Origin: a virus
Direction: 5' to 3' (one strand)
Length of the DNA stretch: 64,000 nt
IMG/VR virus record: IMGVR_UViG_3300049617_000088
Span: 31,714-95,713 of that record
The first letter of the stretch is position 1, and each line of letters starts with the position of its first letter. Position numbers and translations under genes: made by a program. Below are positions 1,319-57,851 of this stretch, piece after piece. The notes under the pieces were generated by a model. It ran no database searches. It was not told the origin of the DNA and was given only the letters and a program-made list of their open reading frames with translations.

Positions 1319-1951
1319 TTATTCGTCCCATTTTGAATCGGAATATTTATGAGTCATCTGGCGCATAAACTCGTGCATAATGATACCGGAAGCGGTACCA
1401 ACATTCAAGCTGCGAACCGAACCATACTGCTCAATATGAACGATGTTTCGACACATAGCTTGCATAGCGGGAGTCAGTCCGACTCCTTCTTCTCCGAGGA
1501 CAAGAAGGGTATTCTTCGTGAAACTATATGAAGAAACGGGAACAGACCCAGGCACGTTATCAACTCCAATAATAACATATTGATCCCTCAATTTAACAAA
1601 ATCTTCTACGGTAGGAAGCCAAGTCACATCCGTGTAATTAAACGTCCCAACTGCCGCCCTTTTATCCCACTTCTTATCGCCCAGATAAAAAACTTCTTTA
1701 GCATTGAAAGCATTAGCATTTCGAACGACAGTGCCGAAATTGAAATCACCAATCAAATGCTCCATGCAAATGGCAAATGGATTAGCCGTTTCACGAAGTT
1801 CCTTCTTGATATCTTCAACTTCCATGCTCTTAAAACGGTCAGCCACATTGTGTTGCCAGGCACCGAAATGCTTATCACCATCGGTAATAGCCGCTTGATG
1901 AGCAAGCGAAGTAGCAGCCAGGTTCGGAGTTGTACTAATCTTCGGTCTCAT
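1319..1951 (-). CDS. SpoU/TrmH-family RNA 2'-O-methyltransferase
   Basis: SPOUT motifs NFGTVVRNA, LGEEGVGL, SLNVGTASGI. Confidence 0.9.
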   Translation of the reverse strand: MRPKISTTPNLAATSLAHQAAITDGDKHFGAWQHNVADRFKSMEVEDIKKELRETANPFAICMEHLIGDFNFGTVVRNANAFNAKEVFYLGDKKWDKRAAVGTFNYTDVTWLPTVEDFVKLRDQYVIIGVDNVPGSVPVSSYSFTKNTLLVLGEEGVGLTPAMQAMCRNIVHIEQYGSVRSLNVGTASGIIMHEFMRQMTHKYSDSKWDE

Positions 1952-2149
1952 GATCTTTCAATTCGCTATATAGTTATTACCAAACAAAACATTTGCAGCC
2001 TCTTTTGCCACCGCAAGTGTCATTATATTCGCCACAAGTCTTACAAAAATTGTAAGTCCAACCTTCAATCTTAGATAATATCTTTAAGACTTCTGCCGGT
2101 GTAGCTTCGGCAAGAGCATGTTCCAATTCTTCTTCCCACTTCTCTTGAC

Positions 2150-2461
2150 TCATAATCTTCTCTGTTGTTGTATTTCTGCCTCTACCTGCTCCATAGCAGT
2201 CTCTACTTCTCGCTCTGCGGCAACACGAAGCTGTCTTTGATGCTCCTGTTTAGCGATCCTGGTTTCCTTTAAATTTCTTGTATATCTAGCAAAACCAAAA
2301 ACAGCAAGAATAGGAACAGCAATTGACCAAAAAACTGCAACTAAAGCTAAAGGTGGATCATTATATCCATCAAAATCATAACCAAGTCCCACCAGTGCAT
2401 CGAACAAACAGAATCCGATTATAGCAGAAATATATAATCCGATAAATAATAGCGCAATCAT
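2150..2461 (-). CDS. Two-TM membrane protein with coiled-coil tail
   Basis: Hydrophobic segments; abuts neighbouring genes. Confidence 0.6.
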   Translation of the reverse strand: MIALLFIGLYISAIIGFCLFDALVGLGYDFDGYNDPPLALVAVFWSIAVPILAVFGFARYTRNLKETRIAKQEHQRQLRVAAEREVETAMEQVEAEIQQQRRL

Positions 2462-3264
2462 TTTAAATTAAAAACCTTTTGAACATTTTTAGAAAGAGAT
2501 TGTATTGAAAATGCGTCACCAAATTCCCAAATTTGATTTAGTGTATCATGATATGATTTTTGATCTGAAATAGGGAAATCTGTCCCAAATAATAACTTAT
2601 CACTCCCAGCTATTTCTAGGAATTGACCAATCATAATTTTAAATTTTCTAAGATCATCAGCTCGAAATTTACCATAAACGAATCCTGAAATGTCTGTATA
2701 AACATTAGCATTCTTATAACAAACTTCTGCCGTATCCGTCACCCAAGGGAAGCCAACGTGGGCGATAACGAATTTAACATCATCATAATCGACAGCAGCT
2801 TCATCAATATTAAGTGGATGAGAGTATTTTAACTTAGCTTTCTTAACAGAGTTAAGACAGTCTCCGCAATGGAAAATAGCTGGAATCTTTAACTGGCTAC
2901 ATAGTTCTAATGGATTATGATAGATCGCTGAAACAGGAGCGTCTTTTTCATTATCATATAAATCATGGGGATAATAATGTTCGTAGCCAGTGTAGAATTT
3001 GATACCAACAACTTCATTATCCATGGCTTGCTTCTCAAAATCCACCCAACGAAAGTTAGGGTGATGATACGCCATTACGCCATACAATCTATCTCTATGA
3101 GGTTTAATCTGCTCTAACATCCAGTCGTTAGGACAATCATTTAGTTCGCCTGCAAAGACTAAAGACTTATCAATCTTAGCATTATCCATGGATTTCAGAA
3201 GCTGTTTGACCGAACAATTGATATGTTCGTTGCGACCTAAATGCGTATGAGAATCGATTATCAT
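2458..3264 (-). CDS. Amidohydrolase_2-family metallohydrolase
   Basis: IIDSHTHLG, FHCG, IAHVGFPW, YTDISG, LLFGTDFP. Confidence 0.9.
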   Translation of the reverse strand: MIIDSHTHLGRNEHINCSVKQLLKSMDNAKIDKSLVFAGELNDCPNDWMLEQIKPHRDRLYGVMAYHHPNFRWVDFEKQAMDNEVVGIKFYTGYEHYYPHDLYDNEKDAPVSAIYHNPLELCSQLKIPAIFHCGDCLNSVKKAKLKYSHPLNIDEAAVDYDDVKFVIAHVGFPWVTDTAEVCYKNANVYTDISGFVYGKFRADDLRKFKIMIGQFLEIAGSDKLLFGTDFPISDQKSYHDTLNQIWEFGDAFSIQSLSKNVQKVFNLK

Positions 3265-3532
3265 TTTAATTTCTCTTCTAAAATCTGTGTTATCAATTCG
3301 GGCGGCTCAACTGCCAAATTTGTTTTGCGCATCACATCGCCAATCAATTTCCCAAGAACCTGAGTCTTACCCTTCTTGTAAGCTTCTACAATCTTGGGTT
3401 CAATTCAATCGCCTCATCACAAAAAATAGCAACAATTTCGGAGTCAGTTATCGTTCCCATGAACCCACATTCAAGAATAGCTTTCTTGATAAACGGACAT
3501 TCAATTTGAACAATCCAACTATAATCATCCAT
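3261..3532 (-). pseudogene. Stand-alone GatB/YqeY-like tRNA-binding domain, frameshifted near 3395; absent from the ORF track
   Basis: Adding one base joins ...CDEAIELNP to KIVEAYKKGKTQVLGKLIGDVMRKT...PELITQILEEKLK, a typical GatB C-terminal pattern. Confidence 0.7.
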
Positions 3533-3575
3533 ATAGAGACTCTTTATATTTATTCAACACAAAGAGTCTTATTAG

Positions 3576-4166
3576 TTAAGAGGCTATCTTGCTCAATTCA
3601 AGAAAACACTTCTCAAGAATATTATATTCTTGAGGCGTTCTTGTTGAACGAACATGGGGGCAGTTTATAACAGATAAAAGTGCCGCTTTAGCTGCTCTGA
3701 GGTTCTTAGTAGCAGCCCCTTTCTGTCCAGCAACAACTTTGCTAGGAGCAGGTGAGGAGGCTTGAGGTACTTGAATTACCGGCATAGGAACCGCCTTTTT
3801 TTGTGGTAACGGTGTAACAGTAAAGCCACTTTTCTGAAAAGCCTGAGCCATCGTTGTCGGCGCCTTAACTGCTGCTACTGCCGGTTTCGGTTGGCTTGGC
3901 TTTTGTGTCAGATCGTCCCAAAACAAACTTTCGGGCGCAATCTTCCAATCACCGTACTTATCTTGGTAAGCTCGTCCATGAAAAGTAAACCCTTCAATCT
4001 TAGAGAGTAAAGAGGAGTGAACGCCTACACGCTCCAAGAAATCGTCGCGATGATCGAGAGTGTATGCGGATCGTATATGGATCTTCGTGCCCTTCAGGGA
4101 AGTGTTTTCCCAAGTAACCTCGGACCATTCTCCATCATCTCTCGCTTGTCTAACAACTAGTTTCAC
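3576..4166 (-). CDS. Hypothetical protein with Pro/Ala/Lys-rich linker
   Basis: ORF track, 196 aa. Confidence 0.6.
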   Translation of the reverse strand: MKLVVRQARDDGEWSEVTWENTSLKGTKIHIRSAYTLDHRDDFLERVGVHSSLLSKIEGFTFHGRAYQDKYGDWKIAPESLFWDDLTQKPSQPKPAVAAVKAPTTMAQAFQKSGFTVTPLPQKKAVPMPVIQVPQASSPAPSKVVAGQKGAATKNLRAAKAALLSVINCPHVRSTRTPQEYNILEKCFLELSKIAS

Positions 4167-4202
4167 AATTTGATCAGTTATAATATTATCTTTCGTAATG
4201 TG

Positions 4203-4814
4203 TTAAAACCAAGATAGTATTGAAACAATTTTTCGATACCATTTGGGTTTACCAGTAACCATGCAATGGGAATTCCAATACACAATCGACTTGGCAAACT
4301 GTTCCGCCGTGAAATCACCTTGAGTCCCGCCTGCTAAATGCAGAAAATTACGAGCCATGGTATAAGGATCCATTGGTTCTTCTTCCTTATCTGTTCTCGC
4401 TTTAATACAAACAATCTCCCACTCTGCCTCTGTTTCGCGCTCGTTGTTCTCAGCTAATACATCGTGACGATAAAGAACAAAAGAAACGTGCTTAGCAAGC
4501 TGCTTCTTAGCTTTAGCTGAAACCCTAATGAAGGGTACTTCGCCTTCTCTGCGAGGTGCAAAGTTAGCAGTAAGCCTACTCTTATTATCTAAAGAAACAA
4601 TAGCGGAATAGAATTTACGATGGCTCCATCCATAATCCATGTCAACCAGAATTACCCCGTCTCTATATCCTGGTCGAACTAATTGTGACTTACTTAAAGA
4701 GCCCTCTACAATATGTTCCAACTCTTTCCAGGTTCCCTCAAAATGAGAATGTCCTGATTCTTTGGTTTGCCTTTTAACAAAAGCACCACAAGCCACTTTC
4801 TTTGAAAATTTCAT
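4203..4814 (-). CDS. DUF3228-like protein
   Basis: PGYRDGV, RREGE, VLYRHDVL, EPMDPYTMARN...GGT, YW motifs. Confidence 0.7.
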   Translation of the reverse strand: MKFSKKVACGAFVKRQTKESGHSHFEGTWKELEHIVEGSLSKSQLVRPGYRDGVILVDMDYGWSHRKFYSAIVSLDNKSRLTANFAPRREGEVPFIRVSAKAKKQLAKHVSFVLYRHDVLAENNERETEAEWEIVCIKARTDKEEEPMDPYTMARNFLHLAGGTQGDFTAEQFAKSIVYWNSHCMVTGKPKWYRKIVSILSWF

Positions 4815-5299
4815 ATTACCATTCTTTAGTTAAAAGAGTATTTAATTTCTTCATCGCCCTATCGAATCTTTCGCGGGGAGACTCAAAAACAGAACCAGAT
4901 TCGTGTTCAAGAAGTACTCGAATGAATTCTTTATTTTGTTCAGCAATTCTTTCTACAGTTTGAAAATCACTCTCACTCATTTCGCGTCCCGCTTTGACAG
5001 CTAGGTTGCTAATTTTATCTAGAATATCTAGAGCGTAGATAGCCTCTTTCAAAATATCCTTAGCATTTACTTTTCCCCAATTGTCCGGCATCTAACTCTC
5101 CCAAGATAAATCAATTCTGCGTGATGTTTCGTTATCAAATTCCAAATCAGACCAGCCACAACCTTCAAGAAAAGAAGTGTACATAGACCTATAATAATAG
5201 GCTTGTTCCATCGAGCGGGAAGCAGCCATCCGTATAATGAAATGGTCAACTTGCATCGCTACTATATCATAAGGAATACGAGGCATTGATACCTACAAT

Positions 5300-5672
5300 T
5301 TAATCTTCGTCTTGAGCACCCTGCAAAACGCGCAAAGCATCTTCCAAAGCTTCTGTAATCTCATCTACCGTTTCTCTTTTAACTTGACTTGTTTGTTTAA
5401 GAAAATGAATATCAAGACGAAGATGTTCAGCCAAAGGTTCCCAAGCAGGAATGACTTTGGCGGGTGAAGTGAACGTGTTGCCGTATGAATTATCTTTTTG
5501 GATAAAATCTAAACTCTCACAGGCTTTTTTTTTCTGTTTCATAAATGTCAGCGTAAAAAGCATCTTCGGAGCGAAACCAACCATGTGCTCCACCTAACCA
5601 AGTACCATCCACAAACTGTACTGCCCAACCTGGATGTGATTTTTGTTCATGCCTTTTATCTTTACGATTCAT
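5300..5672 (-). pseudogene. Hypothetical protein with a frameshift in the T9 run at 5525-5533
   Basis: ATG at 5672 overlaps the upstream stop; MNRKDKRHEQKSHPGWAVQF...YETEKK joins ACESLDF if one base is removed. Confidence 0.55.
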
Positions 5673-6694
5673 GAGTTGACCAAATTTAACCTATTAACTA
5701 TTTCCTGCATCTTGGTAGCATCAAAAGCCAAGTTCATTCTAACCATCCCTGGCACCCCAAACAAGTCCCCGTTAATAAAATTAATTTTCGACTTGACAAA
5801 GTCGGCTTTATTTCCAACTTTAAACCAGCCAAACATTCCAGGTATTTGCTCGATATCTGAATTAACTTCTAGAATCTCTGTATTAACTTGCTTAATAATT
5901 CTTTTGGATTCTTGTAGGGCAGCGTAGGCTTGACCCTCAAAACTTTCCGTCAAAGTAGGATAGCCCTGCATTCTATTCATCAAATCATAAAGAAAGACTT
6001 GAGAGACCATCGAGACCCCCACCGTCATGGCTTCCATATATTGTAGAATCAAAGTGTAAAATTCTTTGTTGGGACAAACGACGTAGCCCAGCCTAAGACC
6101 AGAAAGACCCAGCATCTTACTTATAGAATAAATCTGAACATCACCAAAAGATTTTAATTGGTAACTAGGATCTATATAAGAGTGAGTATAATAAGCTGCA
6201 TCATGAATAAGTGGAATATGTCTCTCTTTTTCTAAAGAAAGATTACAAGCAATTTTTAATAGTTCCACATTAAAAATGAATCCATCAGGATTATTAGGAG
6301 ATAATGCTAAAAAACTATCCCAAAAATTAGTATTATCATTAATACATTTAAGTCCATGCATTTCAGCAAGAGGAGGTATGAGAGCCCAAAAAGGATTCCT
6401 CATACCTAATCTTTCTTTTTTCATTTGTTTAAGGGCATAGAAGCAAGCGCCTAATCCCTGTTTAGCCCCATTAGTAATAATCACTGGAGCCTGATGTTTC
6501 TGTTCTAACAACTGAACTAATGGTTTATAGCCTTGCGAAGGGGGATACTCAAAGAGATGATCTATCTTGGGCAATTCATAGACAGATAGATCAAATACTT
6601 TGAAAAGAGTATCCCTAACCACATGAGGTTCGCCAACGGAAACGTCAATCCAATCCGGTGGTAGTTGTGGTTTCGCAAGCAATATATCACTCAT
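5669..6694 (-). CDS. PLP-dependent aminotransferase, class I/II
   Basis: TNGAKQGL, SPNNPDG, HDAAY, SISKMLGLSGLRLG (PLP lysine). Confidence 0.9.
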   Translation of the reverse strand: MSDILLAKPQLPPDWIDVSVGEPHVVRDTLFKVFDLSVYELPKIDHLFEYPPSQGYKPLVQLLEQKHQAPVIITNGAKQGLGACFYALKQMKKERLGMRNPFWALIPPLAEMHGLKCINDNTNFWDSFLALSPNNPDGFIFNVELLKIACNLSLEKERHIPLIHDAAYYTHSYIDPSYQLKSFGDVQIYSISKMLGLSGLRLGYVVCPNKEFYTLILQYMEAMTVGVSMVSQVFLYDLMNRMQGYPTLTESFEGQAYAALQESKRIIKQVNTEILEVNSDIEQIPGMFGWFKVGNKADFVKSKINFINGDLFGVPGMVRMNLAFDATKMQEIVNRLNLVNS

Positions 6695-6915
6695 TGTCTT
6701 TTTCTTTTTGAATCTTTAGAGCCTCTTCATGAGAATAAAGAATAGTTTTATCATCCTTATAATCATCACCGGGAGCTACATAATATTTATCTGGAATGCC
6801 ACATAATGTGATCCAACCTCTAGCCCCTAGATAAGTCATCTCAGCTCTCCATAGAAGACGACAAGCTTCTTCTTTAGAATAATTTCTAATATCCAAAGGA
6901 TGTAGTTCTTTCATT

Positions 6916-8529
6916 TTACTTTTCTGGTCTAAGAGTTGGAAACAAGATAACATCCTTGATGGATGTAGTATTGGTTAACAACATAACCAATCGATCAATT
7001 CCCATTCCAAACCCAATAGCAGGCGGCATTCCATGTTCAAGCGCTTCAACATAGTCAGCATCATATGCCATTGGATCTTTACTATTATTTTCCAGTTGTT
7101 CTTGGAAACGTAACGCCTGTTCATCAGGATCATTTAACTCTTGAAATGCATTCGCTAATTCGCGACCCTCAACATACAATTCAAAACGGTCACAAATCTG
7201 TGAGTTGTTATCTCTAGAGCGTGCAAGAGGGCTAATCTCCTTAGGAAACTGAGTAATAAAAACAGGACATGAATGCTTGCCGTCAGCCGTACGATAGTCC
7301 TCGGTAAGAAAAGGCTCAGCTACATATTCAAAAAGGACTGCAAACTTTTCTCCAGTAGATTGACATTCCACCAGAGAATTAAACATTCCTTTGACATCAA
7401 TCTTTTGAAGACGAGTATTATTTGGATCAGAAAAGTTTACACTCTCAAGATCGCCAGAGTTATTAAGAGCAAAGAACAGTGCTAGAGATGCCTTGTCACA
7501 AGCATTCACTACTGCTCTTGACATTGGCATCTCGACGAACTGAGAGAAAGTAAACGGTCTTTCATCATACCACTTATGATAAAAAGGACGAACCACTTCT
7601 GGTAATTCAATCTGACAATATGGATTGATGTGAATTAAAAGCTCCTTGGTATAAGCAATTAGCTCCTTGAAATTACCATAAGCCTGATAGCTTTCCATCA
7701 TAGTAAACTCAGGGTTATGTCGAGTATCAATACCCTCGTTACGATAGTTGCGACCAATCTCATATACCCTATCGAGACCACCAACTAATAATCTCTTGAG
7801 ATAAAGCTCGGGAGCAATCCTCAATGCAAGAGGAATGTCCAAAGCATTGTGGTGTGTCATAAAAGGCTTGGCATTAGCGCCGCTCGCCACACTGTTGAGG
7901 GTTGAAGTCTCAACTTCCAAGAAGTTCTTCTCTTCCATAAACTGTCGAATAGCTCGGATGATATAAGTACGAACCGTAAAACGGGCACGACTCTCTTCCG
8001 AAGACATCAGATCTAAATACCTCTTACGGTACTTGAGTTCTTCGTCAGCAATGCCCGCAAACTTCTCAGGAGGAGGGCGATGTGCCTTGGTCAAAAGCCT
8101 GAGACCATAAAGTAAAAGAGATCTCTCACCCGACTTAGATAGACAAGGAACTCCCCCTGCTTCCACAATATCTCCCAAATCAAATAACTTAAGACCATCG
8201 TACTCAGCGAAGGCAGCCTTACTAACAATCAATTGAACCGAACCAGTTGAGTCAGTAACCTTGATAAAAGTAATAGCGCCCGACTTGCGGAAAGCAGTAA
8301 TACGACCATGAATAGAATACTTCGGAACTTCACCTAGCTCTGCGGGCACAATGGTAGTCTTAAGCTTACCAGCATCTTGCTTACTTTGCATATAAGTCAG
8401 CAAGTAAACAATACTGGTATGATTAATAAAAGGTAAAGAACTGGGATCAACCGCTAGGGGATAGGTTCCGCCATTAGCTTCTTGGTGCTTATCCTTACGA
8501 ATCTGGATGAGAGTATCTTCGGATGACAT
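6916..8529 (-). CDS. lysS: Lysine--tRNA ligase, class II
   Basis: OB-fold N-terminus, YRKRYLDL, LRIAPELYLKRL, RNEGIDTRHNPEFTMME, ELANAFQELNDP, GMPPAIGFGMGIDRL. Confidence 0.97.
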   Translation of the reverse strand: MSSEDTLIQIRKDKHQEANGGTYPLAVDPSSLPFINHTSIVYLLTYMQSKQDAGKLKTTIVPAELGEVPKYSIHGRITAFRKSGAITFIKVTDSTGSVQLIVSKAAFAEYDGLKLFDLGDIVEAGGVPCLSKSGERSLLLYGLRLLTKAHRPPPEKFAGIADEELKYRKRYLDLMSSEESRARFTVRTYIIRAIRQFMEEKNFLEVETSTLNSVASGANAKPFMTHHNALDIPLALRIAPELYLKRLLVGGLDRVYEIGRNYRNEGIDTRHNPEFTMMESYQAYGNFKELIAYTKELLIHINPYCQIELPEVVRPFYHKWYDERPFTFSQFVEMPMSRAVVNACDKASLALFFALNNSGDLESVNFSDPNNTRLQKIDVKGMFNSLVECQSTGEKFAVLFEYVAEPFLTEDYRTADGKHSCPVFITQFPKEISPLARSRDNNSQICDRFELYVEGRELANAFQELNDPDEQALRFQEQLENNSKDPMAYDADYVEALEHGMPPAIGFGMGIDRLVMLLTNTTSIKDVILFPTLRPEK

Positions 8530-8559
8530 AGTGTCCTGTGAATATTTCGATATTTGTTT

Positions 8560-9225
8560 ATGGTTTTAGGTTACAATATTAAACAAAGAATCCAGCAGCT
8601 TGAAGCTTTAGGGGCTAAGAAACTTTCCTTACCCTATAAAGAAATTCCAGGTGTTATTTCTGCCAGAGCTTTAGAAGAACATCTCAAGCTTTTTGAGGGC
8701 TATAAAGATTTATTAAAACGAATTGATGCCCGTTTCGAAACCATGAGTAAAGATGATGTCCCTAAAAAGACTGCCTGGGATCATTCTTTCCGTGCCATTA
8801 AACAAGCCGAAACTTATGCTCTAGGCGGAATCTTATTGCACGATTTATTCTTCAATAACTTAACCACCGAGACCTCAGATTGCAAGGGCTTGGAAATTGA
8901 AAAGTTTATTAAAGGGCAAGGCTTCGCTTCTCTATCAGAGTGGAAACACTGTATGCGCGGTAGCTTAATGGAAGCTAGGGGTTGGGTAATCTTTTCTATA
9001 GATGACCAAGGCGACTATCGTATTTTATTATTAGATGCTCACGATGAAGGAGCAATGTTTGGTCAGACTCCATTGATAGTCATAGATGTTTATGAACACG
9101 CCTACTGGATGGATCATGGAGTTGATCGTGCTACTTATGTGGATGGTATTTTTAAACACCTCAACTGGGAAGAGATCAACCAAAGATATTTGGACGCACG
9201 TGCGCGTCTCAGTGAATCCGTTTAA
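8560..9225 (+). CDS. Fe/Mn superoxide dismutase-family protein
   Basis: EEHLKLF, LHDLFF, DVYEHAYWMD metal ligands. Confidence 0.85.
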   Translation: MVLGYNIKQRIQQLEALGAKKLSLPYKEIPGVISARALEEHLKLFEGYKDLLKRIDARFETMSKDDVPKKTAWDHSFRAIKQAETYALGGILLHDLFFNNLTTETSDCKGLEIEKFIKGQGFASLSEWKHCMRGSLMEARGWVIFSIDDQGDYRILLLDAHDEGAMFGQTPLIVIDVYEHAYWMDHGVDRATYVDGIFKHLNWEEINQRYLDARARLSESV

Positions 9226-9511
9226 CTTTACGAACTACTTTAACAATACGACACTTGGTTGGATCGAAAGTAGATGGCGCTGTATCAGAAGGGGGTTCAA
9301 GAAGAGAATCATAACCAGAATAGTTACGGATAGCAACTTCGCGCTCTCTAATGTCATCAGCCATTTCTTTGTCACCAAATCTAACTGCTAGCTTTCTATT
9401 TTCAGTCAGCATATTTTCAACCTTAGAAAAAGGATTGAAAGATTTCCTGCTCATGTATGGTGCGTAATACTTGTCCTCATATTTAAGAACGTAATAAAGA
9501 GTTTCTTTCAT
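9209..9511 (-). CDS. Hypothetical protein
   Basis: ORF track. Confidence 0.55.
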   Translation of the reverse strand: MKETLYYVLKYEDKYYAPYMSRKSFNPFSKVENMLTENRKLAVRFGDKEMADDIREREVAIRNYSGYDSLLEPPSDTAPSTFDPTKCRIVKVVRKVKRIH

Positions 9512-9544
9512 AATCTTACCTAATTGTTAATATTAAATTATACT

Positions 9545-9580
9545 TGGTGGGCATGGAGGGAGTCGAACCCTCATGACCCA
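9545..9580 (-). pseudogene. Orphan tRNA 3' half (T-arm, acceptor strand, CCA)
   Basis: GAGGG-TTCGACT-CCCTC-CATGCCC-A-CCA; no matching GGGCATG 5' strand nearby upstream. Confidence 0.7.
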
Positions 9581-9796
9581 TATAACCTTATCGATCAAAT
9601 ATGAAGCATGCATGCTTCGTAATAACGTCCAGCGAAGATTCCATGAATATGTTTTCAAGTAAACATAAAATGTCGCTTGGCGATGAAGAAAGGGTTTGAA
9701 TTAACAACTCCTATATAATACTGGGTAGACTATACCACCATACTTATAAACCAAATTAGTAGTGGGTAATCATATTCGATTGATACATAGTTATGT

Positions 9797-10288
9797 ATGC
9801 CAAGTGTAGCTTACAAAGTAAACGATAAAAAATTTTCCGAAGCTGTAAAATCATCCACATCCATCAGACAAGTACTAATGAAACTAGGGCTAAACGAAAC
9901 CGGAAGTGCTTACAGAGTTTTTAAAAAGAGAATAAAAATATTAAAACTCGATATTTCACATTTTACGGGACAAGGACATTTACGTGGCAAATCTCATAAC
10001 TGGGCAATTAAACAGCCAATTGAAGAAATACTGATTGAGAACAGTACTTACGCCAATATTGCCAGTCTGAAGAATAGGCTCGTCAATGAGCATATTGTTC
10101 AATATAAATGTTCTGAATGTGCAATAACTAATGAATGGAATAATAAACCGATAGCATTACAACTCGATCATATTAACGGTATCTATGATGATCATAGAAT
10201 TGAGAATCTTAGGTTTTTATGTCCCAATTGTCATTCACAAACTTCTACTTTTGCTTTTGCTGGTAAAAATATTGGGAAGAATAAATAA
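9797..10288 (+). CDS. Free-standing HNH endonuclease
   Basis: CSEC...LQLDHING..DDHRIENLRFLCPNCH; paralogue of 20152..20652. Confidence 0.9.
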   Translation: MPSVAYKVNDKKFSEAVKSSTSIRQVLMKLGLNETGSAYRVFKKRIKILKLDISHFTGQGHLRGKSHNWAIKQPIEEILIENSTYANIASLKNRLVNEHIVQYKCSECAITNEWNNKPIALQLDHINGIYDDHRIENLRFLCPNCHSQTSTFAFAGKNIGKNK

Positions 10289-10290
10289 AT

Positions 10291-10376
10291 TGGTGCCAAC
10301 GGTGGGACTTGAACCCACACCCCATTTCTGGGACTTGGTTTTGAATCAAGCGCGGCTGCCATTACGCCACGTTGGC
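10291..10376 (-). tRNA. tRNA-Leu(CAA)
   Basis: Cloverleaf GCCAACG...CGTTGGC-A-CCA, loop TTCAAAA, long variable arm, GTTCAAGT T-loop. Confidence 0.92.
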
Positions 10377-13930: not shown

Positions 13931-14004
13931 TGTCTCTCCGACAGGACTCGAACCTGTATAAAGCAGCTTAGAAGGCTGCCGCCCTTCCATTAGACCACGG
14001 AGAG
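13931..14004 (-). tRNA. tRNA-Arg(TCT); CCA not encoded
   Basis: CTCTCCG/CGGAGAG acceptor, GCAGC-CTTCTAA-GCTGC anticodon arm, GTTCGAGT T-loop. Confidence 0.92.
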
Positions 14005-14096
14005 TCGCGAGACAACCTAATCTCTATAAATTGGTTGTCAAGCCCTACAGGGCGCCTGCCAGCCAAATAATTGATAAGCTGGTTATATTTAATGTG

Positions 14097-14675
14097 ATGA
14101 GTAAAAAAGACTATACAAATTTAAAAGTAAATAGATTAACTTTTATTAAGGCAACTAACAAAAAGAGTGGTGGTAAAATTGTTTGGGAATTACTTTGTGA
14201 ATGCGGAAATATCACATATGCTATTGTATATAAAGTAACATCTGGACGAACTAAAAGTTGCGGATGTTATGCTTTACAAGTAGCCTCAAAAATTGCCACT
14301 AAGCGCGGATTAGCCAATAGAAAATACCCTCCTATTATAAGCAGTGCCCGACGAGTATGGGAGTACTATAAAGATGGATGTGATTTTGAAACATTCTTTA
14401 AACTATCTCAATTGTCCTGTGATTATTGCGGTAGAAAACCATATAGAATATTTAATATTGGATCGAAACAACGTAAAAGTGAGTGTACGAGTGACTTCCA
14501 AAAAACAGAAGGAAATTTTATATACAACGGTTTAGATCGTATTGATAGTTCAAAAACTCATACACCAGATAATGTGGTTCCATGTTGTTGGGATTGTAAT
14601 GATATGAAAAAAGATCGTACACGTGATGAATTTATATCACATATAAAACGTATACATACTCACCTTACCCCTTGA
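14097..14675 (+). CDS. Free-standing HNH-type endonuclease
   Basis: CECGN...SCGC N-terminus, CDYCG, NGLDRIDSS..H...NVVPCC..CN; paralogue of 46513..47214. Confidence 0.85.
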   Translation: MSKKDYTNLKVNRLTFIKATNKKSGGKIVWELLCECGNITYAIVYKVTSGRTKSCGCYALQVASKIATKRGLANRKYPPIISSARRVWEYYKDGCDFETFFKLSQLSCDYCGRKPYRIFNIGSKQRKSECTSDFQKTEGNFIYNGLDRIDSSKTHTPDNVVPCCWDCNDMKKDRTRDEFISHIKRIHTHLTP

Positions 14676-16173: not shown

Positions 16174-16925
16174 GACTTAGTTCTCATTATCCATTTGAAA
16201 TGACAGCCACTCGGCTTATCCTTATTGTCGGTTCCTTTACATTCTGTATGAAAATGACCATCATGATAATCGTCACATTCACAATACTTAATTTGACCAA
16301 ACTTCCAAGCCATACCGCATTTGGGACAGTACGTACAATCAAAGTTTTGAAACCCATATGATCCATCTTCTATGGGAGTAACAGTCTTATCTATTTTCAA
16401 TTTTCTAATTAGACTGTTAGCACAATGGTATGCTGTACCGCCGCCAATAAGGAAAAACTATGTCAACTATGACGCTCATTTGTTTTCTAGCTCGTTAATC
16501 TTGTCATAAGCAAGGAGTAATTCTTGCACCAAAGCATTTTTGCTTAGAACGAAACATTCTTTCTTTGAACCTGACCATTTACATCCACAATTATATTCAT
16601 CATGACAATGATAAGTGCTATTGTTTCCACGGTAAACGGAACCAAAATGACTACTACCACACTTAGGGCAATCAAAATCATAGTGATGAGTTTCAGTATC
16701 AATGGATTCAATATAAGATGACTGCCCATTAATCATTGCTTCTAGCACTTTTCGATCAATCATTTGGCTAGTTCCAATCCCCAAGGAGTCTCCACGTATT
16801 TTCGTTCCATATCCTTTTGGGACTTAGTGCGCTTGAACTTAAACTTATGCCCGCAGCTTGTCAATTTTTCGCCTTTGGGTGTAGAACCAATAACACACAT
16901 CATCTGTTTACAGATAGGACAGGGC

Positions 16926-20035: not shown

Positions 20036-20048
20036 ATGTATTTAGTAC

Positions 20049-43405: not shown

Positions 43406-44587
43406 TTATTCTCCCATATGTTCTTTACACTTGGCAAGATACCAAGCACGAGCTTTTTCACCAAGTGGTTTGGAAACCTGCTTCCAATCCAGCTTGCTAG
43501 CTTCCAACTCATCCTGAGTTTCCTTTTGGACATCTGCTGTAATCCAAGTAAGGAATTTTCCGGTCTGCTTATTATTGTAGGTAAGTGCGCCCGTCGTACA
43601 AAACAAGCATCGTAGCGAGTCTTCGTGCTTATGTTCTCCAAGGATAGCCCTGGCTCCTTGCTCCAATCGAGCCGGAGTTAGGACCATCTCCACGAAGGCA
43701 GTAATATTAGCCGCTGCTGCCACATTGACTTGTGCAGGAGCCGAAGTCTTAACCACACGATGCTTATCACCTTTGGCTTTGAAAGTTAGGTTCTTGAAAT
43801 TTTCATATCCCAAATGCTCTTTCGAGATGGGATAGAAAACCAAACCCTCTCCGGTTCCATTGATTCCAAAAACTCGTGCAATCCAAGGATCCTTAGCTTC
43901 AATCGCCATGACCCATTCATTAATCTTGTCGGTCTGCTTGGTCAAGTCTTCATCACCCAGAGTCCAATCAACCTCAACTCTAGCAGCAATACGAGTATCG
44001 CTACCATGCATCGCGGCAACATTGTGCCAGTCAATAACATAGGTATCTGGGATGCTATGCACCAGCGCTTCCAGAGCAGTTGGCTCAACAATCAAGTCAG
44101 GAGCATAAGCATAGTTCTCTCGGAAGGCAAGCTGTCCTTCCTTGTTAAAATAAGTTTCAGCTTGAACAGTCTTGGGATTCGGTTCTCCCATAGGACGAGC
44201 AGCGAAGACACAAAAAACCTTCTTGGGAATCTCGGAACAAGCAACGCCCTTCTGCACACCAGGACCAATCCATTCGCCAAAGATAATCATTCCCTTACGC
44301 TGATCCGCAGTAGGAGATTGTTCCTTGTTGGCTCGCCAATAATCCTCATTAGCCTTGACCCACTTGGCAAAGCCTTCGTTGTCTTTCTCTACCGACAATT
44401 CAACCGTACGGCTTTGAGCAGTGATAGTACCGTCAGCATGACACTGAATAGCATGGTTCTGCCCATGCAGTTTTACCTTACAAGAATAGCGTACGATGTT
44501 GTTTCCATTAAGGATTTCGGGATGAGCCGCAGCATACTTTCTAATGTTAGCGAAGCCTTCGATCTCAGTCCATGCAAAGAGTGTCAT
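43406..44587 (-). CDS. Second ATP-dependent RNA ligase (Rnl2-like)
   Basis: KVKLHGQN (motif I), QSR, DN.GFA, FGEW.GPGVQKG, GEGLV, FKAKG. Confidence 0.82.
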   Translation of the reverse strand: MTLFAWTEIEGFANIRKYAAAHPEILNGNNIVRYSCKVKLHGQNHAIQCHADGTITAQSRTVELSVEKDNEGFAKWVKANEDYWRANKEQSPTADQRKGMIIFGEWIGPGVQKGVACSEIPKKVFCVFAARPMGEPNPKTVQAETYFNKEGQLAFRENYAYAPDLIVEPTALEALVHSIPDTYVIDWHNVAAMHGSDTRIAARVEVDWTLGDEDLTKQTDKINEWVMAIEAKDPWIARVFGINGTGEGLVFYPISKEHLGYENFKNLTFKAKGDKHRVVKTSAPAQVNVAAAANITAFVEMVLTPARLEQGARAILGEHKHEDSLRCLFCTTGALTYNNKQTGKFLTWITADVQKETQDELEASKLDWKQVSKPLGEKARAWYLAKCKEHMGE

Positions 44588-45668: not shown

Positions 45669-46586
45669 TCAATATGCCTTTTCTGGATTGTGAGGCTTGA
45701 CTACCCCACTTGTCAACCCTGCTTGGAATTTATCGAAATACTTATAGGTTGAATACAATTTAAGAATTTCCGGTGCGTTGTCATAGGCAAACTCTCGGAA
45801 CCAGCCCGAAGTAATGCTAGAACAAACTTTAGAGTATGCCAAGCACCATGCCTGGTCAATCGTCAATACACCAGGGTGAGGTACCAATGACCTCTCCACT
45901 GCTAGAACCGCTGCCTCTTCCAAGACACCAGCCAAACGAATGTCCCTAGAGCAATCAAAGAACTTCTGCTTGCTCGTCTGAACCTCTGCTCCATCCTTCT
46001 GATAATAGGTATAAGCAGGATGCTCATAAATCTTTACCGACTCATGAATCGAATCATGGTCATGAACATACTGCAAACCATCATCCGAGAAGAAGTGCTT
46101 CTTATTCTGATTCAGCTTGGGATGAGCATAGGTATAAGTCTCCTTCTCGCGAAGCTTATAGAAGTCCATATACTCAGGACGAATCTTCGCCCCAGACATC
46201 TTCATCCCATGGTAATCACCCATGGTCTTCCAGAAGTGAGGACTATTCTTCAGATACTTGTGAGAAGACTTAAGAGTAAAAAGCATATCGAAAGACGGAA
46301 TCATTCCGAGGGGAGTGTCAATATGATCTTCCTTGACTAGCTTCTCAAACATCTCTAGAGAAGTTCCAGGAGTAATCATTTCAAACTCACAGATAGAAGT
46401 TCCCTCGGCAATTACCTTCTTGCCACCATCCAGTGGATAGATCTTCTTTGCTTCAATCTTGGCAGAGTTAGCATCCAGCCAAGAATCACATTCCTCCTGC
46501 GAACAAACAAAATCAAAGTCGCGTGGCGGTCTGTTTAGTATCTGGGGCGCTCGTAACGCCAATGCCCTGCTCCCAACTAGTATCAT
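45669..46586 (-). CDS. Phage nucleotidyltransferase-like protein
   Basis: VGSRAL...RDFD (Pol-beta GS..DxD), HDHDSIH, SGWFREFA. Confidence 0.6.
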   Translation of the reverse strand: MILVGSRALALRAPQILNRPPRDFDFVCSQEECDSWLDANSAKIEAKKIYPLDGGKKVIAEGTSICEFEMITPGTSLEMFEKLVKEDHIDTPLGMIPSFDMLFTLKSSHKYLKNSPHFWKTMGDYHGMKMSGAKIRPEYMDFYKLREKETYTYAHPKLNQNKKHFFSDDGLQYVHDHDSIHESVKIYEHPAYTYYQKDGAEVQTSKQKFFDCSRDIRLAGVLEEAAVLAVERSLVPHPGVLTIDQAWCLAYSKVCSSITSGWFREFAYDNAPEILKLYSTYKYFDKFQAGLTSGVVKPHNPEKAY

Positions 46587-47214
46587 TTAGCTTATCCTTT
46601 AAGTGTAGGTTATAAATCTTTTCTATCCAGAAAAAGAAATCTTTTATAGAGCAATCCATTTTGCCGGTATTGCATCTAAAACAACAGGCGACTACGTTTA
46701 ATTTTGTGTGGCGTAACGAAGAATCAATTCTATCTAAACCATTGTATGTAAAGTATCCATCTTTAATACCTCTCGCGGAAGGATGATCTTTTTCATACTT
46801 TCCAACATAAGTATTATATACATTACATGGTTTAGCTCCACAATAGAAACAATCTTTTTGAGATAGATCTAAAAAATCTTCAAAAGATAAATCTCCATCT
46901 TCGTATCTATTACGATAGACTCTACGAGCCGACGCAATTCTCGGCTCTCTTTTGAACATTTTAGCCTGAGCTTTTTGCAAATTCAAAAGAATAATATCCT
47001 GATTAAGACAGCCGCAACTTTGGGTATGTCCTAATTTAATTGGGGATAATCTTGTCAGAAATTCTTTTGAACAATCACATAAACATTTAACTAAAATTTT
47101 ACCATCTTTAGATCTTTGATCTGTTACTTCTTTGATTATCAATCTACCAAATCTTTGGTTGATAAATTTTGATGCTCTTAAAATAGCTCTTGTTGCTTTT
47201 TTTGGATATCTCAT
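46513..47214 (-). CDS. Free-standing HNH-type endonuclease
   Basis: RFGRL, CLCDC, SCGC, CFYCG, NGLDRIDSS..H...NVVACC..CN. Confidence 0.85.
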   Translation of the reverse strand: MRYPKKATRAILRASKFINQRFGRLIIKEVTDQRSKDGKILVKCLCDCSKEFLTRLSPIKLGHTQSCGCLNQDIILLNLQKAQAKMFKREPRIASARRVYRNRYEDGDLSFEDFLDLSQKDCFYCGAKPCNVYNTYVGKYEKDHPSARGIKDGYFTYNGLDRIDSSLRHTKLNVVACCFRCNTGKMDCSIKDFFFWIEKIYNLHLKDKLNDTSWEQGIGVTSAPDTKQTATRL

Positions 47215-50103: not shown

Positions 50104-51546
50104 TGATATCTCTCTTACAGGTAAGTGGGCTCGTGTGGTTTTGGACAAACCTTTGGAACGACAACCGTTGGATGCTGCGGAAACATATAGTAAGCATCGC
50201 GATGGTGCATGGCAACCCCTCCGATAATGATTCCGAGCATCAAACAGAATATGTACCTCATGCTGCCTTTTTAGATTCCATCCAGTCCCGAAGGTAATCC
50301 AATCGAATCTCCCACTCATGTCGGATTCGATCCAAACTCCAGGCATTGGAAGTCTTCTCCCGAAGATCATTGCTCCAATGTTTGATATCTTTAGGAGACT
50401 TGAATCGTCCAAAATGAAGGCGAGCCCTAGACTCCTCATCCCAATAAGGATTGTTGGTGATATTGTACATCGTAGATTTAGGATGATTATCCTTAGGTTG
50501 CATGTGCAATTCAATTGCACGAACTCTAATTTTTCGTGCCATTGCTGCAAAGAAGCCTCCAGGCGATTGCCAACCCTTTTGATGAATCTCTGGAGTTTTC
50601 ATTCCCCAATCTTTCTTGGTCAATCGAGAGAAGTTATTCATCTCTACGATATGGGAAATTTGATGCGTACCACGAGGAAAATCTACCGGGAACATAATTT
50701 GTTTCTTGGTAGGAATATAGCCAACCTTTTCTTCTACATCTTCATAGAAGGAGTAATCCTTAATCCGAGGATCCATTTCCATCAAAGAAAGGATAAATCC
50801 CTCAACCCCTGCCTCACAAGGAGAAACGGGTTTCACGTGAGTCGGACCAGATTTCTTAACCATCATGACTAGGCGATTCCGAAAGGATTGGTTGCCGTGA
50901 TACATGCTACATCAATAGCATTTTCTGCATTGAGACGATCACCAATCAACCAGTAATATATGCCGATAACGAACAGCGCTGTAACTTGCTCTTGTTTAGA
51001 AAGGACAGTCATTTGATTTTCTTTAACAGTTCAGGGTAAAGTGCGTTGAAACGTTCAGATTCTTTTTGTTGTTCAGTTTGAGCATGACTAACCGAAGTAG
51101 CTCGCAAAACTCGCAGAGCTTCTAGCAAGGCTTCTTTACCAAGAACGATTGTTATTAATTCCGATTCTCGTTCTAAAATAGTTTTCTTGAGAGAAGATAC
51201 CTTACGGCGAGCCTGCGCCTCATCAGCTTCGGCTTCTTTAATTCTGTCCAGCAATTCCTGTTCCCGAGGAAGCATGAGATAATTCTTTCATGGGAAGTAT
51301 ATCCCATTTGATGGTGGTAGAACGTAATCAACTGTCACCCCTTCTTCGTCAGTTAAGGGGCAGAGAATCTGATGTGTTCCCATATCGCAACCCCAATCTG
51401 AATCAGGCTCCCATGATAGTCCGTCTTCGGCATCATAGACTTCCTCTAATCGAGAATCCAATTCCTCGAAAGAAGGCGCTTCAACTACTACTGTTTTAAC
51501 TTCTCTAACCAGCCTAGCCAATTCAACTTTGAACTTCATATCCTGC

Positions 51547-53907: not shown

Positions 53908-54228
53908 TTACTTCTGCGCCTTCTTCTTACGACGCTCCGTATGAGTCGCCACTGCTGCCTCACGAGCCGCCTTGATGTTGGCATCGGTTCGCGCCTGATT
54001 GAGCGAACCCTTCTTGTGGGCAAACCAATCCTTGGCAGCCTGATCACCAGACTTGGCAAGCGTACGAGCGAAAACCTTAAGGCTAACGTGAGAAGTGCTA
54101 GCCTTCCACTTCTGCTTGATAGTCAGTCCAGCCGTAGCTGTACCAACCTCTCCCCTCTCACCACGAACGGGCTCCGAATTGGGAAGCTCAACCACCACTG
54201 CAACCGACGTACTCTCTTGATTATCCAT
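53908..54228 (-). CDS. Basic hypothetical protein
   Basis: Lys/Arg/Ala-rich. Confidence 0.55.
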   Translation of the reverse strand: MDNQESTSVAVVVELPNSEPVRGERGEVGTATAGLTIKQKWKASTSHVSLKVFARTLAKSGDQAAKDWFAHKKGSLNQARTDANIKAAREAAVATHTERRKKKAQK

Positions 54229-54865
54229 TGTCCTGCTCCTATGCACTCGCGTTATGCGATTCAGGTTTAATTGTTTAATTGTTAATAACTGCTTCTCAGT
54301 CAACTATTACTATCTCTTCCACCATATTATTTGACCTTAAATTTCTCTTGGAGACGAAGGAACTCTGCATATTCTGGATCAGATTCAACCTTAGCCTTGG
54401 TTGAGTAGTCCTTCCATTCAGAAGGCATAACATGAGCCAAACCATATCGAAAAAACTTTACCTGTTCTTCTAATTTTGTTGCTCCGTTATCGTCCCATTT
54501 ACCATCATAGCCAGCAGATCGTTTGCGTTCACTGGCGTCATCCAGAATCAAATTGATTACTTTATCAAAATCCATGTTCGATAACGTAAGGCACTTCGGT
54601 GGGCTTGTCAAGGGGACGGGCTTTTTATCTTCACCAACTTCACGAATCTCCCAAGGAATTGGGAACATCGACTCCAACAAACTTGCACCAGGAGCCAGAT
54701 GTTCTAGAACCTTTTTTAGCTTCTTCCAAAGAAAGAAGCCAGGGATCGCTCATGGGTTGATTATAATTAGTCCAACACTTTCTTTCCTTGTGCCAAACAT
54801 TGTAGTGAACCATGTTATTTCCTTAATGAAAACGCTGAGAGACACCGAACCCAATGACTTCCTAC

Positions 54866-54896
54866 ACCTATGGTATCACACCGTTTTACGATGGGT
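54866..54896 (-). promoter_or_regulatory. Bipartite motif copy 5 (N9-CATAGGT)
   Basis: Exact 15-mer match, intergenic. Confidence 0.75.
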
Positions 54897-56526
54897 ACGT
54901 TTTACAGTCAGGGTGTCATTTATTTTTATGAATCTCTGCTAGAATCTCTCGCAGCCTAGCTTCACTAAGGTCAAGTTCTTTTTCCAAAGAACGATTGTAT
55001 TCCTGACAATTATGGAGCTGACTATTTTTAGCAATACAGCCGCATGAAAACAAAAGTATTCCCAGAAATAGGAATTTCATATCATACCGCCAGCCACCAA
55101 AACAGTACGTTTATGATACTCCAAAACGAATAGACGAAACTGTTCTACATTCTCATGGAGCTTAACTAAGTCTTCAGTGTTAGGACCACAACCATCTTCC
55201 CAACAAGTTCGAGCATGAACATACTCTTCGGTCTTCTTCAGAAGATCATTGAGCATCTCCTCGAACTTGTTGTCGGGTTTGACGTCTGGATTAATTACCG
55301 GATACATTTAAAAACTCTTCTTCCTTAAGATGGCGAATCCATCGCCTCATGATGTATCCAATCCATTTGAGTTGTAAAGTATCAAATGGATGTCGTTTAC
55401 AACCAAGAGTAATTAGTATTCCCAATACAGAAAGCAGATGAAGTGGAATACAAACGATATCTCTTATCAATCTAAATTTTAGATTCAGATTCATTTTAGT
55501 TCGTCTCCCCATAGTACCAACGATGCATGTAGCTGTCAATATCCCAGCCACTCGATTCAATCAGATTTTGAATCTCTAGACAATGCTTCTCAATCTCCTG
55601 AGTCTCATGGTCTTCGAAATTCTTTTGATACATCGCCTCTACCAAAGGATAGAGAATCTGATACGGTACTTTGTTATTAGTGGTAGCCATTAGCTTGAAC
55701 CAAAACCTTCCGGGCTTGAGAATACAAATCCTCCCAAGTGGTTGAGAAGCGATCTGTTTGCGCAGCCCACTCTTTCTTGAATTGAGTTAGACTTAGGCGC
55801 CGACCAATTGATCGATGATCAATCATCGGATTAGAAAGACGTGCTGGACGAATTGATGCAATACAAGGAAGCTTTCTATAATCATCAGTGCCTCGCAAGG
55901 TCTCGGAATCATAGAATTTTTCTTTGTATTTAATGAAAGCATGAACGGGACAGCCCCATAGTTCAAGACCTTTGAAGGTATGGAAGGAGAGGTAAGCCCA
56001 CATAAAGCACCTACCCCAATTGATCTCGTTCGGTGGGATATCTGGAAAGTAGAACTCAGTTACAAACTTGGGTTGGAATTTCTGAATTTTCCTCACGACC
56101 CATTTCCTCCAGCACCTGATCCCAATTCCAACCACAAGCTTCAATGTAAGCGTCAATGGTATCTGCCCGCTCCATTGCCAATTCATCTGTTGAGAGGTCG
56201 CCCTCAAAGAACAACTTCTCCAAACCCATTGACATTTGACTATACGGTACCCGCTTCATGTTCAATGTTTTCCTTCAGTTTCGATCCGCTTGAGATATTC
56301 CTTCTCAGCAGTTTTCAGGTTATCAGAATAGGAAGTCCAATATTTGCAAGAAGGTTCCCAAACACCATCGACCAAATGCATGTTCTCGCGACAAGCCTCG
56401 AATGGTTCTGATCCATACTTCAGCAAACGAAGTACATAACGATACTTAGTAAAAGCATTCTTATACAGGTGAGACGACTTGAGAATCGTCTCGTCTTCTT
56501 TGATCGTTTCCATTGTCGCCCTCCGT

Positions 56527-56557
56527 ATCTGTAGGGCAAACCCGTTTTACGATGGGT
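56527..56557 (-). promoter_or_regulatory. Bipartite motif copy 6 (N9-TACAGAT)
   Basis: Overlaps the stop of 56547..56849; GGAGG and ATG at 56513 follow. Confidence 0.75.
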
Positions 56558-57374
56558 ACTTTTCCGGTGGAGGTGTAAATGTAATCTCGTCACCCTCACT
56601 AGGTTTATCATTGTGCCCGACAGGAACCAACATTAAAGAATGCAAACGATTGATTGGTGTGGCTTTCTTTACAAGATTGGCGATGTAATTAGTGCCCAAC
56701 ATTGTTGGGTATAGAATTATCGCAAGTGGCCAAAAGATTCCGATGAGCACCCACGGCACCTCATTCTCGTGAGGATCAAAAGCCTTGGCAACGCCAGTGG
56801 CTATCCCCATTCCCAACAGATAGCCAAGAACACACAATGCGATAATCATCTGCCTCGATACCTTTCAATCGTATTGTTTAGAAACGAATTGATTGCAACC
56901 GCAGCCAGAGCATAGAGATCATCCTCCGCCCTCGCCTTGCGATTGAAGAAGTTTTGAACGAACCTTCTGTCTTCATCAGGACAATCTAATCCCTTTAGCT
57001 CTGCCATGACATACTGGCTAAGAACATAGAGATCCTTAGTTCGCTGATCACAACTCCAGTTGTCAGACTTGCCAACTTTTAATTCGGCTGCCCAAATTTT
57101 GTACCAAGTTTGGTGTGGAGGTGTTCCTACTTCCGTGGGAAGTTCCCAATCCAAATCTTCTTTAACTGATTTGGCGGTGTATTGATCGGGCATAGCTCTT
57201 GGATATTCCACGGGTTCTCCGAATTTAGTTTCGTTACCTTCACCCCCAGAACCAACCACATTTAGTTGGACCAGCACAAGGAGTCTTGCCGCAAAAACGA
57301 AAGACCATCCACGGCTTGGAATCTTCTGATTGAGATTCCTTGTGTTTCTTACCAGACATTGATTGCCTTTTAAA

Positions 57375-57851
57375 TTATTTATTGAGAATACGAACGGCTT
57401 CCCGAACATGATGATCTTGCAAGCCATCTTCAAAAAGAGTTTTAATATGAAAAGCTCTTAGCTCATCCATCCACTCATCATCCAAGATGACGAAAGCTTC
57501 TGGCTTCTCATTCATTCCTAACCAAGCTTTGATTTCAAACTCCCTATCATGCGCTACATAAAGAGTAGAATTTTCAGCAAGCTGTGGTTCAGGAGTCATC
57601 CCAATGATTGGGGCAAGAATGTTATAACTTGCCATAGACTCCTGGCACTTATCCAAACGATTTTTAAAAGCATAACGCCAGGTGGAACTGAGAACTATGC
57701 AAGAACCCGTTTGAGCTGCAATGGCATTCAATCGAATGACTGCTTCTGAATCAATTTGATTGGCAGGGTCATCCCAAGCCTCGCCAATGGAGCGCATATA
57801 TTTTCGGGAATTTAAAACTCCGTCAATGTCTAGAAATATTACCTTTGCCAT
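57375..57851 (-). CDS. HAD-family phosphatase of the type linked to RNA repair
   Basis: IFLDIDGVLN, LSSTWR, R..EI..WL, FVILDD. Confidence 0.85.
   Translation of the reverse strand: MAKVIFLDIDGVLNSRKYMRSIGEAWDDPANQIDSEAVIRLNAIAAQTGSCIVLSSTWRYAFKNRLDKCQESMASYNILAPIIGMTPEPQLAENSTLYVAHDREFEIKAWLGMNEKPEAFVILDDEWMDELRAFHIKTLFEDGLQDHHVREAVRILNK

Follow-up and report, generated by a model that had tools for sequence, protein, structure and literature searches.

The IMG/VR virus record IMGVR_UViG_3300049617_000088 (95,713 bp, hereafter the contig) carries a rich set of phage genes for RNA repair and translation support, spread over the 64-kb stretch analysed here (bases 31714–95713 of the record; hereafter the window, with positions counted from its first base). 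CheckV places the record at 21% completeness, so the full phage genome is probably about 450 kb. The G+C content is 38–46%, and the window contains about 135 open reading frames (ORFs), with nearly all of the sizeable ones on the minus strand. No nucleotide similarity to cultured or deposited phages was detected when 22 kb were compared with 50,697 phage records by megablast, and the phage-record protein matches for RtcB and the ATP-dependent ligases described below are all at or below 30% identity. The initial annotation, made from the letters alone, had read these genes as a single lysine-centred module that counters tRNA-cleaving host defences. Here, profile searches bear out RtcB, the HIT hydrolase, the HAD_SAK_2 phosphatase, SpoU, the Trbp111-type protein, LysRS and tRNA-Lys(UUU) where that annotation had placed them; its observation is partly confirmed and its interpretation partly supported. 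We propose that the window is probably part of the accessory arm of a phage of about 450 kb, holding a dispersed repertoire of RNA-repair and translation-support genes of the kind known from jumbo and huge phages, rather than one coordinated module. The genes concerned are as follows.

1319–1951, minus strand: SpoU/TrmH-superfamily RNA 2'-O-methyltransferase (PF00588, E 9e-24)
5669–6694, minus strand: class I/II aminotransferase, the downstream neighbour of LysRS (PF00155, E 4e-18)
6916–8529, minus strand: class II LysRS with an anticodon-binding OB domain (TIGR00499, 477 bits against a cut-off of 427.6; PF00152 and PF01336)
10291–10376, minus strand: tRNA-Leu(CAA), just upstream of LysRS (ARAGORN and Rfam)
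13932–14004, minus strand: tRNA-Arg(UCU) (ARAGORN and Rfam)
14665–16173, minus strand: RtcB RNA ligase (PF01139, 305 bits against a cut-off of 27, E 1e-90)
19949–20136, minus strand: tRNA-Leu(UAA) and tRNA-Gln(UUG) (ARAGORN and Rfam)
30886–30962, minus strand: tRNA-Lys(UUU) (ARAGORN and Rfam)
33877–34263, minus strand: Hint-branch HIT hydrolase (PF01230, E 3e-17)
34260–35357, minus strand: Rnl5-type (DraRnl/NgrRnl) ATP-dependent RNA ligase (PF21189 and PF09414; TIGR02306, E 6e-29; phrog_968)
39782–40141, minus strand: stand-alone tRNA_bind (Trbp111/CsaA/MetRS-C-like) OB-fold protein (PF01588, 58.9 bits against 27, E 3.5e-17)
43406–44587, minus strand: distant Rnl2-like ATP-dependent RNA ligase (PF09414, E 6e-11; phrog_548, E 1e-40 over the full length)
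57375–57851, minus strand: stand-alone HAD_SAK_2 phosphatase of the 'Swiss Army Knife' RNA-repair family (PF18143, 94.4 bits against 27.5, E 1e-26)

The repertoire (nine confirmed protein genes and five tRNAs) extends over 56 kb at spacings of 4 to 14 kb, with all of the confirmed repair and translation genes on the minus strand. The HIT gene and the Rnl5-type ligase form the sole adjacent pair, and this adjacency is absent at 13 orthologous loci, which argues against a single module. LysRS is 22 kb from the tRNA-Lys and 27 kb from the HIT gene.

Relatives were recovered by an alignment-based LysRS query of IMG/VR (single-protein related-locus searches of the same database with RtcB, HIT and LysRS returned no matches), and nine records were searched for the presence or absence of each gene. 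These comprise the near-complete clade genomes G002 (481 kb), G004 (448 kb), G005 (433 kb) and G006 (361 kb), the fragments or partial records G001, G003, G007 and G008, and a distant outgroup, G009; five of the nine are 97–100% complete. A 340-kb record holding the loci L007 and L029 stands outside these genome-wide counts. The gene order of the relatives is colinear with the window, and LysRS, RtcB and both ATP-dependent ligases belong to large families found on metagenomic contigs of 290–498 kb. From these comparisons, the clade core appears to consist of LysRS, SpoU and PF09414 ligases (1 to 5 copies in each relative), with the TROVE protein Ro60 in most members, and RtcB, HAD-SAK and the Trbp111-like protein appear to be variable. 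The expectation that the genes would recur together in related phages is therefore borne out for the core and fails for RtcB (one of nine relatives), HAD-SAK (three of nine), the Trbp111-like protein (three relatives: G001, G002 and G004) and HIT (none of nine).

The relatives also carry a more canonical repair unit at another site. In the complete 481-kb genome G002, positions 146.5–155.8 kb (within L070, G002:C1:145000-156000) encode two kinase-phosphatases (one AAA_33 plus PNK3P, the other AAA_33 plus HAD_PNKP, E 2e-47), three ligases (PF09414, Rnl1-type and again PF09414) and a calcineurin-like phosphoesterase. This cassette is about 135 kb from LysRS, in a region that our contig does not cover, and similar kinase–ligase pairings are present in G003, G004 and G005. 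The placement of a Pnkp and Rnl1 cassette elsewhere in the clade genome suggests that the ATP-dependent ligases in the window are extra copies and not the dedicated tRNA-repair unit of the clade. Profile scans found no Pnkp-type kinase or Rnl1 on the contig, and no 5'-kinase was found in the window. A weak P-loop kinase upstream of the window (contig 16569–17168) was rejected as a polynucleotide kinase, as only its first 45 residues match AAA_33.

RtcB joins 3'-phosphate or 2',3'-cyclic phosphate ends to 5'-OH ends. Alignment of the window protein to Thermus thermophilus RtcB (2epg; also 1uc2) shows that the metal ligands and the histidine nucleophile are intact in the motifs PDfHkG, DIcCG, GNHF, HSGS..GH and SaCHGAGR. 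Its homologues are 67–86% identical on contigs of 460–470 kb, followed by bacterial RtcB at about 63%. Among the relatives, only G005 encodes RtcB, at the syntenic position and 9 kb from LysRS.

ATP-dependent RNA ligases join 3'-OH to 5'-phosphate ends. The characterized Rnl2 and Rnl5 enzymes favour nicks in duplex RNA; repair of the anticodon loop is known for Rnl1-type ligases, and neither ATP-dependent ligase in the window is of that type. The initial annotation counted three RNA ligases of two chemistries, which holds, although they fall into three families (RtcB, Rnl5 and Rnl2-like): of the two that it assigned to Rnl2, the one at 43406 stands as Rnl2-like and the one at 34260 does not. 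The latter has a PHA02142-type OB domain (PF21189, residues 8–75) followed by a PF09414 nucleotidyltransferase domain (185–343) and lacks a C-terminal domain. Among NCBIfam models, TIGR02306 (the Deinococcus DRB0094 type) fits it best, at 100.9 bits and thus under the equivalog cut-off of 151, and its only PDB sequence matches are to the Naegleria gruberi RNA ligase NgrRnl (5cot/6vt4, E about 3e-6), in an alignment that spans residues 20–286. Together, these features identify an Rnl5-type and not an Rnl2-type enzyme; Rnl2 identity is ruled out by the lack of any TIGR02307 match and by the N-terminal OB domain in place of the helical C-terminal domain. Motifs I, III, IV and V (EKxHGSN, FFGEvYG, EGwV and KLVGEGY) are invariant in four orthologues, and orthologues at 55–72% identity occur on 11 IMG/VR contigs.

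The second ligase (motifs KVKLHG, EGLV and FKAKG) scores only 24 bits against TIGR02307, far under the cut-off of 197. In its AlphaFold2 (AF2) model (predicted local distance difference test score, 82), the best PDB match is full-length T4 Rnl2, including the helical C-terminal domain (2hvr/2hvq, E 2e-10, probability 1.0), with a template modelling score of only 0.37–0.46, and on the basis of this model the protein is best called Rnl2-like. It has more than 600 homologues, many of them on contigs of 290–490 kb. In the locus L008, two segments resembling the Rnl5-type ligase (4894–5484 and 6829–7473) lie 1.3 kb apart, 2.5 kb upstream of an Rnl2-like homologue, and may represent a split or duplicated ligase gene.

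As the initial annotation had noted, the HIT gene abuts a ligase: its GTG start codon overlaps the TGA stop codon of the upstream Rnl5-type ligase. The histidine triad is intact (HLHMHLL), and the top PDB and NCBIfam matches are to Hint/HinT proteins, with the NCBIfam scores under the equivalog cut-offs. The overlap invites a reading in which the two form a functional pair, the phosphoramidase reversing ligase-lysyl-AMP or abortive 5'-adenylylated RNA as aprataxin does on DNA; AMP-lysine phosphoramidates are hydrolysed by Hint enzymes, and aprataxin is itself a HIT enzyme. However, neither tblastn nor a histidine-triad pattern found a HIT gene within 4 kb of the ligase at any of the 13 orthologous loci, none was found in the nine related genomes, and the protein belongs to the Hint branch and lacks the aprataxin zinc finger. 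We therefore reject the coupling as a conserved feature and consider a functional pairing very improbable; by sequence comparison, the HIT gene appears to be a one-off acquisition.

A conserved part of the window is built around LysRS. The class II motifs YRNEG and GxGxGxDR are invariant across 17 clade sequences, and homologues at 60–71% identity are found on many contigs of up to 498 kb. More than 120 clusters are 59–71% identical to this LysRS; identity to bacterial-type enzymes from the phage-record search is about 38–44%. These comparisons point to an old lineage. LysRS was found in G002–G007 and is missing only from the incomplete clade records G001 and G008. It is the sole synthetase shared by all four near-complete clade genomes among the eight Pfam aminoacyl-tRNA synthetase families tested (those named being 2, 2b, 1, 1c, 1b, 1d and 2c; 2d was left out). 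No other synthetase was found in G004 or G006, two of class Ib are present in G002 and one of class Ic in G005, and the outgroup G009 has many.

LysRS is part of a block at 1319–10376 that comprises tRNA-Leu, LysRS, an 88-residue ORF, the aminotransferase, DUF3228, amidohydrolase_2 and SpoU and is syntenic in at least five relatives. The aminotransferase lies beside LysRS in L024, L025, L027, L029 and L030, and the tRNA-Leu keeps its position in L024, L025, L029, L030 and L031; the tRNA adjoining LysRS is a tRNA-Leu in six genomes. SpoU is present in all eight clade relatives, always within a few kb of LysRS (directly adjoining it in G006), and is missing in the outgroup G009. Its NCBIfam matches to RlmB, TrmH and TrmL are all far under the cut-offs, and its best PDB match is a tRNA G18 2'-O-methyltransferase (E 3e-10). 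The proposal of a lysine-centred set is thus contradicted by the layout, which places LysRS beside tRNA-Leu, the aminotransferase and SpoU and far from tRNA-Lys, and supported by LysRS being the only synthetase that is always kept.

Two side observations concern this block. An HNH endonuclease gene (9797–10288, plus strand), with a paralogue at 20152–20652 (minus strand), is wedged between tRNA-Leu and LysRS, and the same insertion is seen in L029 and L030. In G005 (L069, G005:C1:362000-381000), RtcB, HAD-SAK, tRNA-Leu, LysRS, a class Ic (Glu/Gln) synthetase and SpoU lie within 17 kb, in what appears from gene content to be a tighter version of the island that is dispersed in the window.

The contig encodes at least 17 tRNAs of many specificities (at least 11 besides Lys), five of them in the window and at least 12 in the 31.7 kb upstream. 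The anticodon loop of the tRNA-Lys(UUU) is canonical (CUUUUAA), and the gene has A73 and encodes its CCA. In L007, the closest relative, the syntenic tRNA-Lys has an identical loop and compensatory stem changes, a pattern that suggests a working tRNA; no evasion change in the anticodon loop was visible by inspection or in the L007 comparison. Further tRNA-Lys copies are present in G005 (CUU), G007 and G008. Lysine ranks second among the residues of the contig ORFs (7.3%), which offers a reason unrelated to defence for supporting Lys decoding. The region upstream of the window also contains a tRNA-Pro(UGG)-like gene (L004:4698-4797) whose anticodon loop is interrupted by a 26-nt hairpin between positions 33 and 34; it scores 54.8 bits against the Rfam tRNA model and has no ARAGORN call. 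If an endonuclease exists, RtcB could be its joining enzyme. In the same region, ARAGORN calls at L004:1805-1879, 2153-2236, 5122-5196 and 5222-5297 have A34 anticodons (ATT, ACC and AAA) or, in one case, a four-base anticodon (GGAA), and may be mis-registered loops or genuinely odd tRNAs.

For the Trbp111-like protein, the NCBIfam matches are under the equivalog cut-offs. The 'Swiss Army Knife' systems that give the HAD-SAK family its name were reportedly treated by Burroughs and Aravind in 2016; the window protein has the DxD nucleophile motif (FLDIDGV, residues 6–12), and the homologues in G002, G003 and G005, one copy each, lie near LysRS, unlike in the window. The ORF beside it (56846–57433), considered as a possible kinase, has no P-loop and no family match.

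Other window ORFs encode an aminotransferase, an amidohydrolase, DUF3228, CoaE, an M50 peptidase, an EamA transporter, an isochorismatase-like protein and a UvrD helicase, together with at least five HNH endonucleases and one GIY-YIG endonuclease. The dephospho-CoA kinase CoaE (24474–25079, E 1e-53) and a cytidylyltransferase-like protein (contig 5437–5973) suggest phage-encoded steps of cofactor (CoA or NAD) synthesis. A paralogue family without a Pfam match has members at 14031–14675 (plus strand), between tRNA-Arg and RtcB, at 46513–47214 (minus strand) and at contig 2227–2658 (minus strand); all three match L008 8640–9197, and the family may belong to a mobile element. Ro60 (TROVE plus vWA) is encoded in the 31.7 kb that precede the window, about 35 kb from RtcB, as are an AlkB-like dioxygenase, a weak 2H-SAK match and the weak P-loop kinase rejected above.

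Two proteins in the initial annotation, a YqeY domain and a nucleotidyltransferase-like protein, were given without coordinates and are not recovered: searched at E ≤ 1 in all six frames, the whole contig returned no match to YqeY (PF09424), RlaP (PF10127) or NTP_transf_2 (PF01909). Neither was seen in the Pfam scans of ORFs of at least 60 residues, which were taken from a greedy non-overlapping selection (about 40 and 96 ORFs, in two sets) and left out two minus-strand ORFs, 50258–50905 (215 residues) and 53908–54303 (131 residues). The contig yielded no CCA-adding enzyme, and neither RtcR nor RtcA turned up; Pfam scans of the contig showed no splicing endonuclease, and no Y RNA reached the Rfam threshold (YrlA, 22.8 bits against a cut-off of 69, in a match spanning two tRNAs).

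In the mechanism that we propose, RtcB would be the only enzyme in the window able alone to rejoin tRNAs that metal-independent nucleases have cut to leave 2',3'-cyclic phosphate and 5'-OH ends. The Rnl5-type and Rnl2-like ligases would need healed 3'-OH and 5'-phosphate ends and, by analogy with their characterized relatives, would favour duplex nicks. Healing for these enzymes could be divided between the HAD phosphatase in the window, which would remove a terminal phosphate, and a kinase encoded outside it. The phage tRNAs may substitute for depleted host tRNAs, and LysRS, SpoU and the Trbp111-like protein may support tRNA charging, modification, binding or stability.

Some observations sit less easily with a dispersed repertoire. 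As the genes share one strand, some co-transcription is possible. The contig covers 21% of the genome, which limits the view of kinase and Rnl1 linkage in this phage. The retention of LysRS as the only conserved synthetase points to more specificity than expected of a generic toolkit. Finally, even the model ligases of the Rnl2 and Rnl5 types are not known to have established biological substrates.

The account put forward in the initial annotation sees a lysine-centred counter-defence, built in layers, against anticodon nucleases that cut tRNA-Lys (PrrC, RloC and PARIS being examples), in which the ligases repair, tRNA-Lys replaces, SpoU and the Trbp111-like protein protect, LysRS recharges and HIT clears lysyl-adenylate. 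The retention of LysRS in every near-complete clade genome, its constant linkage to SpoU, the intact RtcB and the recurrence of tRNA-Lys in relatives, with its loop conserved and its stems covarying, are all in keeping with it. The layout is not, with tRNA-Lys 22 kb from LysRS and a tRNA-Leu as the neighbour of LysRS in six genomes; moreover, two of the proposed components are inconstant, as HIT is unique to this phage (and 27 kb from LysRS) and RtcB is missing in eight of nine relatives. The canonical anticodon loop, the other tRNA specificities and the motive for Lys decoding offered by lysine usage speak against it further, and we judge the layered scheme improbable.

Alternatively, the ligases and Ro60 could chiefly process the phage's own nucleic acids instead of mending damage done by host defences, by joining intron-bearing or permuted tRNAs or Y-RNA-like elements, or by sealing RNA:DNA nicks in replication. 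The interrupted tRNA-Pro(UGG)-like gene on the same contig would be a candidate substrate, protein-catalysed tRNA splicing in archaea and eukaryotes relies on RtcB as its ligase, and the preference of characterized Rnl2 and Rnl5 enzymes for duplex nicks would suit a sealing role, as would the Rnl2-like homologue in L009 that adjoins a 5'-3' exonuclease/FEN homologue; Ro60 is also kept in most clade members. Yet neither a splicing endonuclease nor an above-threshold Y RNA emerged from the contig scans, and the loss of RtcB from most relatives would be odd for an essential processing enzyme. We consider own-RNA processing as the chief role quite unlikely, and favour the dispersed repertoire.

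Repertoires of this kind have been described. In jumbo phages, combinations of RtcB and Rnl ligases, TROVE, stand-alone HAD-SAK proteins and tRNA arrays are reported, with Rnl1 and Rnl2 named as common families (Iyer, Anantharaman, Krishnan, Burroughs & Aravind 2021, PMC7824862, section 3.4.9), and such genes are read there as counter-measures to attacks on the translation apparatus. The present phage, also larger than 200 kb, resembles these in its RtcB with ATP-dependent ligases, stand-alone HAD-SAK, TROVE/Ro60 and many tRNAs, and differs in that one ligase is of the Rnl5 type, RlaP and a CCA-adding enzyme were not found on the contig, and LysRS and HIT are added. Huge phages of more than 200 kb encode tRNAs, up to 15 synthetases per genome, tRNA-modification enzymes and tRNA ligation genes (Al-Shayeb et al. 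2020, PMC7162821); the same classes of gene occur here, although this clade keeps essentially one synthetase, LysRS. The locus is thus a further example of a described kind. The proposed purpose is shared with the restoration of tRNA-Lys by T4 Pnkp and Rnl1 against PrrC, and the relative G002 groups two Pnkp-like proteins with an Rnl1 and two other ligases in a 9-kb stretch, whereas the window and contig lack both a Pnkp-type kinase and Rnl1. With the bacterial rsr (Ro60)–Y RNA–rtcB operons, the contig shares Ro60, RtcB and many tRNA-like genes; unlike in those operons, Ro60 and RtcB are far apart, RtcR and RtcA were not seen and no Y RNA is called.

Collectively, this analysis provides a well-resolved example, from an uncultured clade of phages of about 450 kb, of a stable core (LysRS, SpoU and multiple ligases, with Ro60 in most members) and a fluid shell (RtcB, HAD-SAK, Trbp111 and HIT). 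It reassigns one ligase to Rnl5, for which no biological role is known, and places the canonical Pnkp and Rnl1 cassette of the clade elsewhere in the genome. Across the clade, of 360–480 kb, LysRS is the one synthetase always kept and is always linked to SpoU and tRNA-Leu, which raises the possibility, tentative and on balance unlikely, that the island, with a vertically inherited and strongly diverged LysRS, is a dedicated device for sustaining either the decoding of lysine codons or a particular state of tRNA modification while tRNA-Lys is under attack or shut down by the host. If so, lysine decoding would be a preferred battleground well beyond the case of T4 and PrrC. The conserved lone LysRS with its linked SpoU is the best lead to emerge from the locus, and offers a handle on why huge phages retain particular synthetases.

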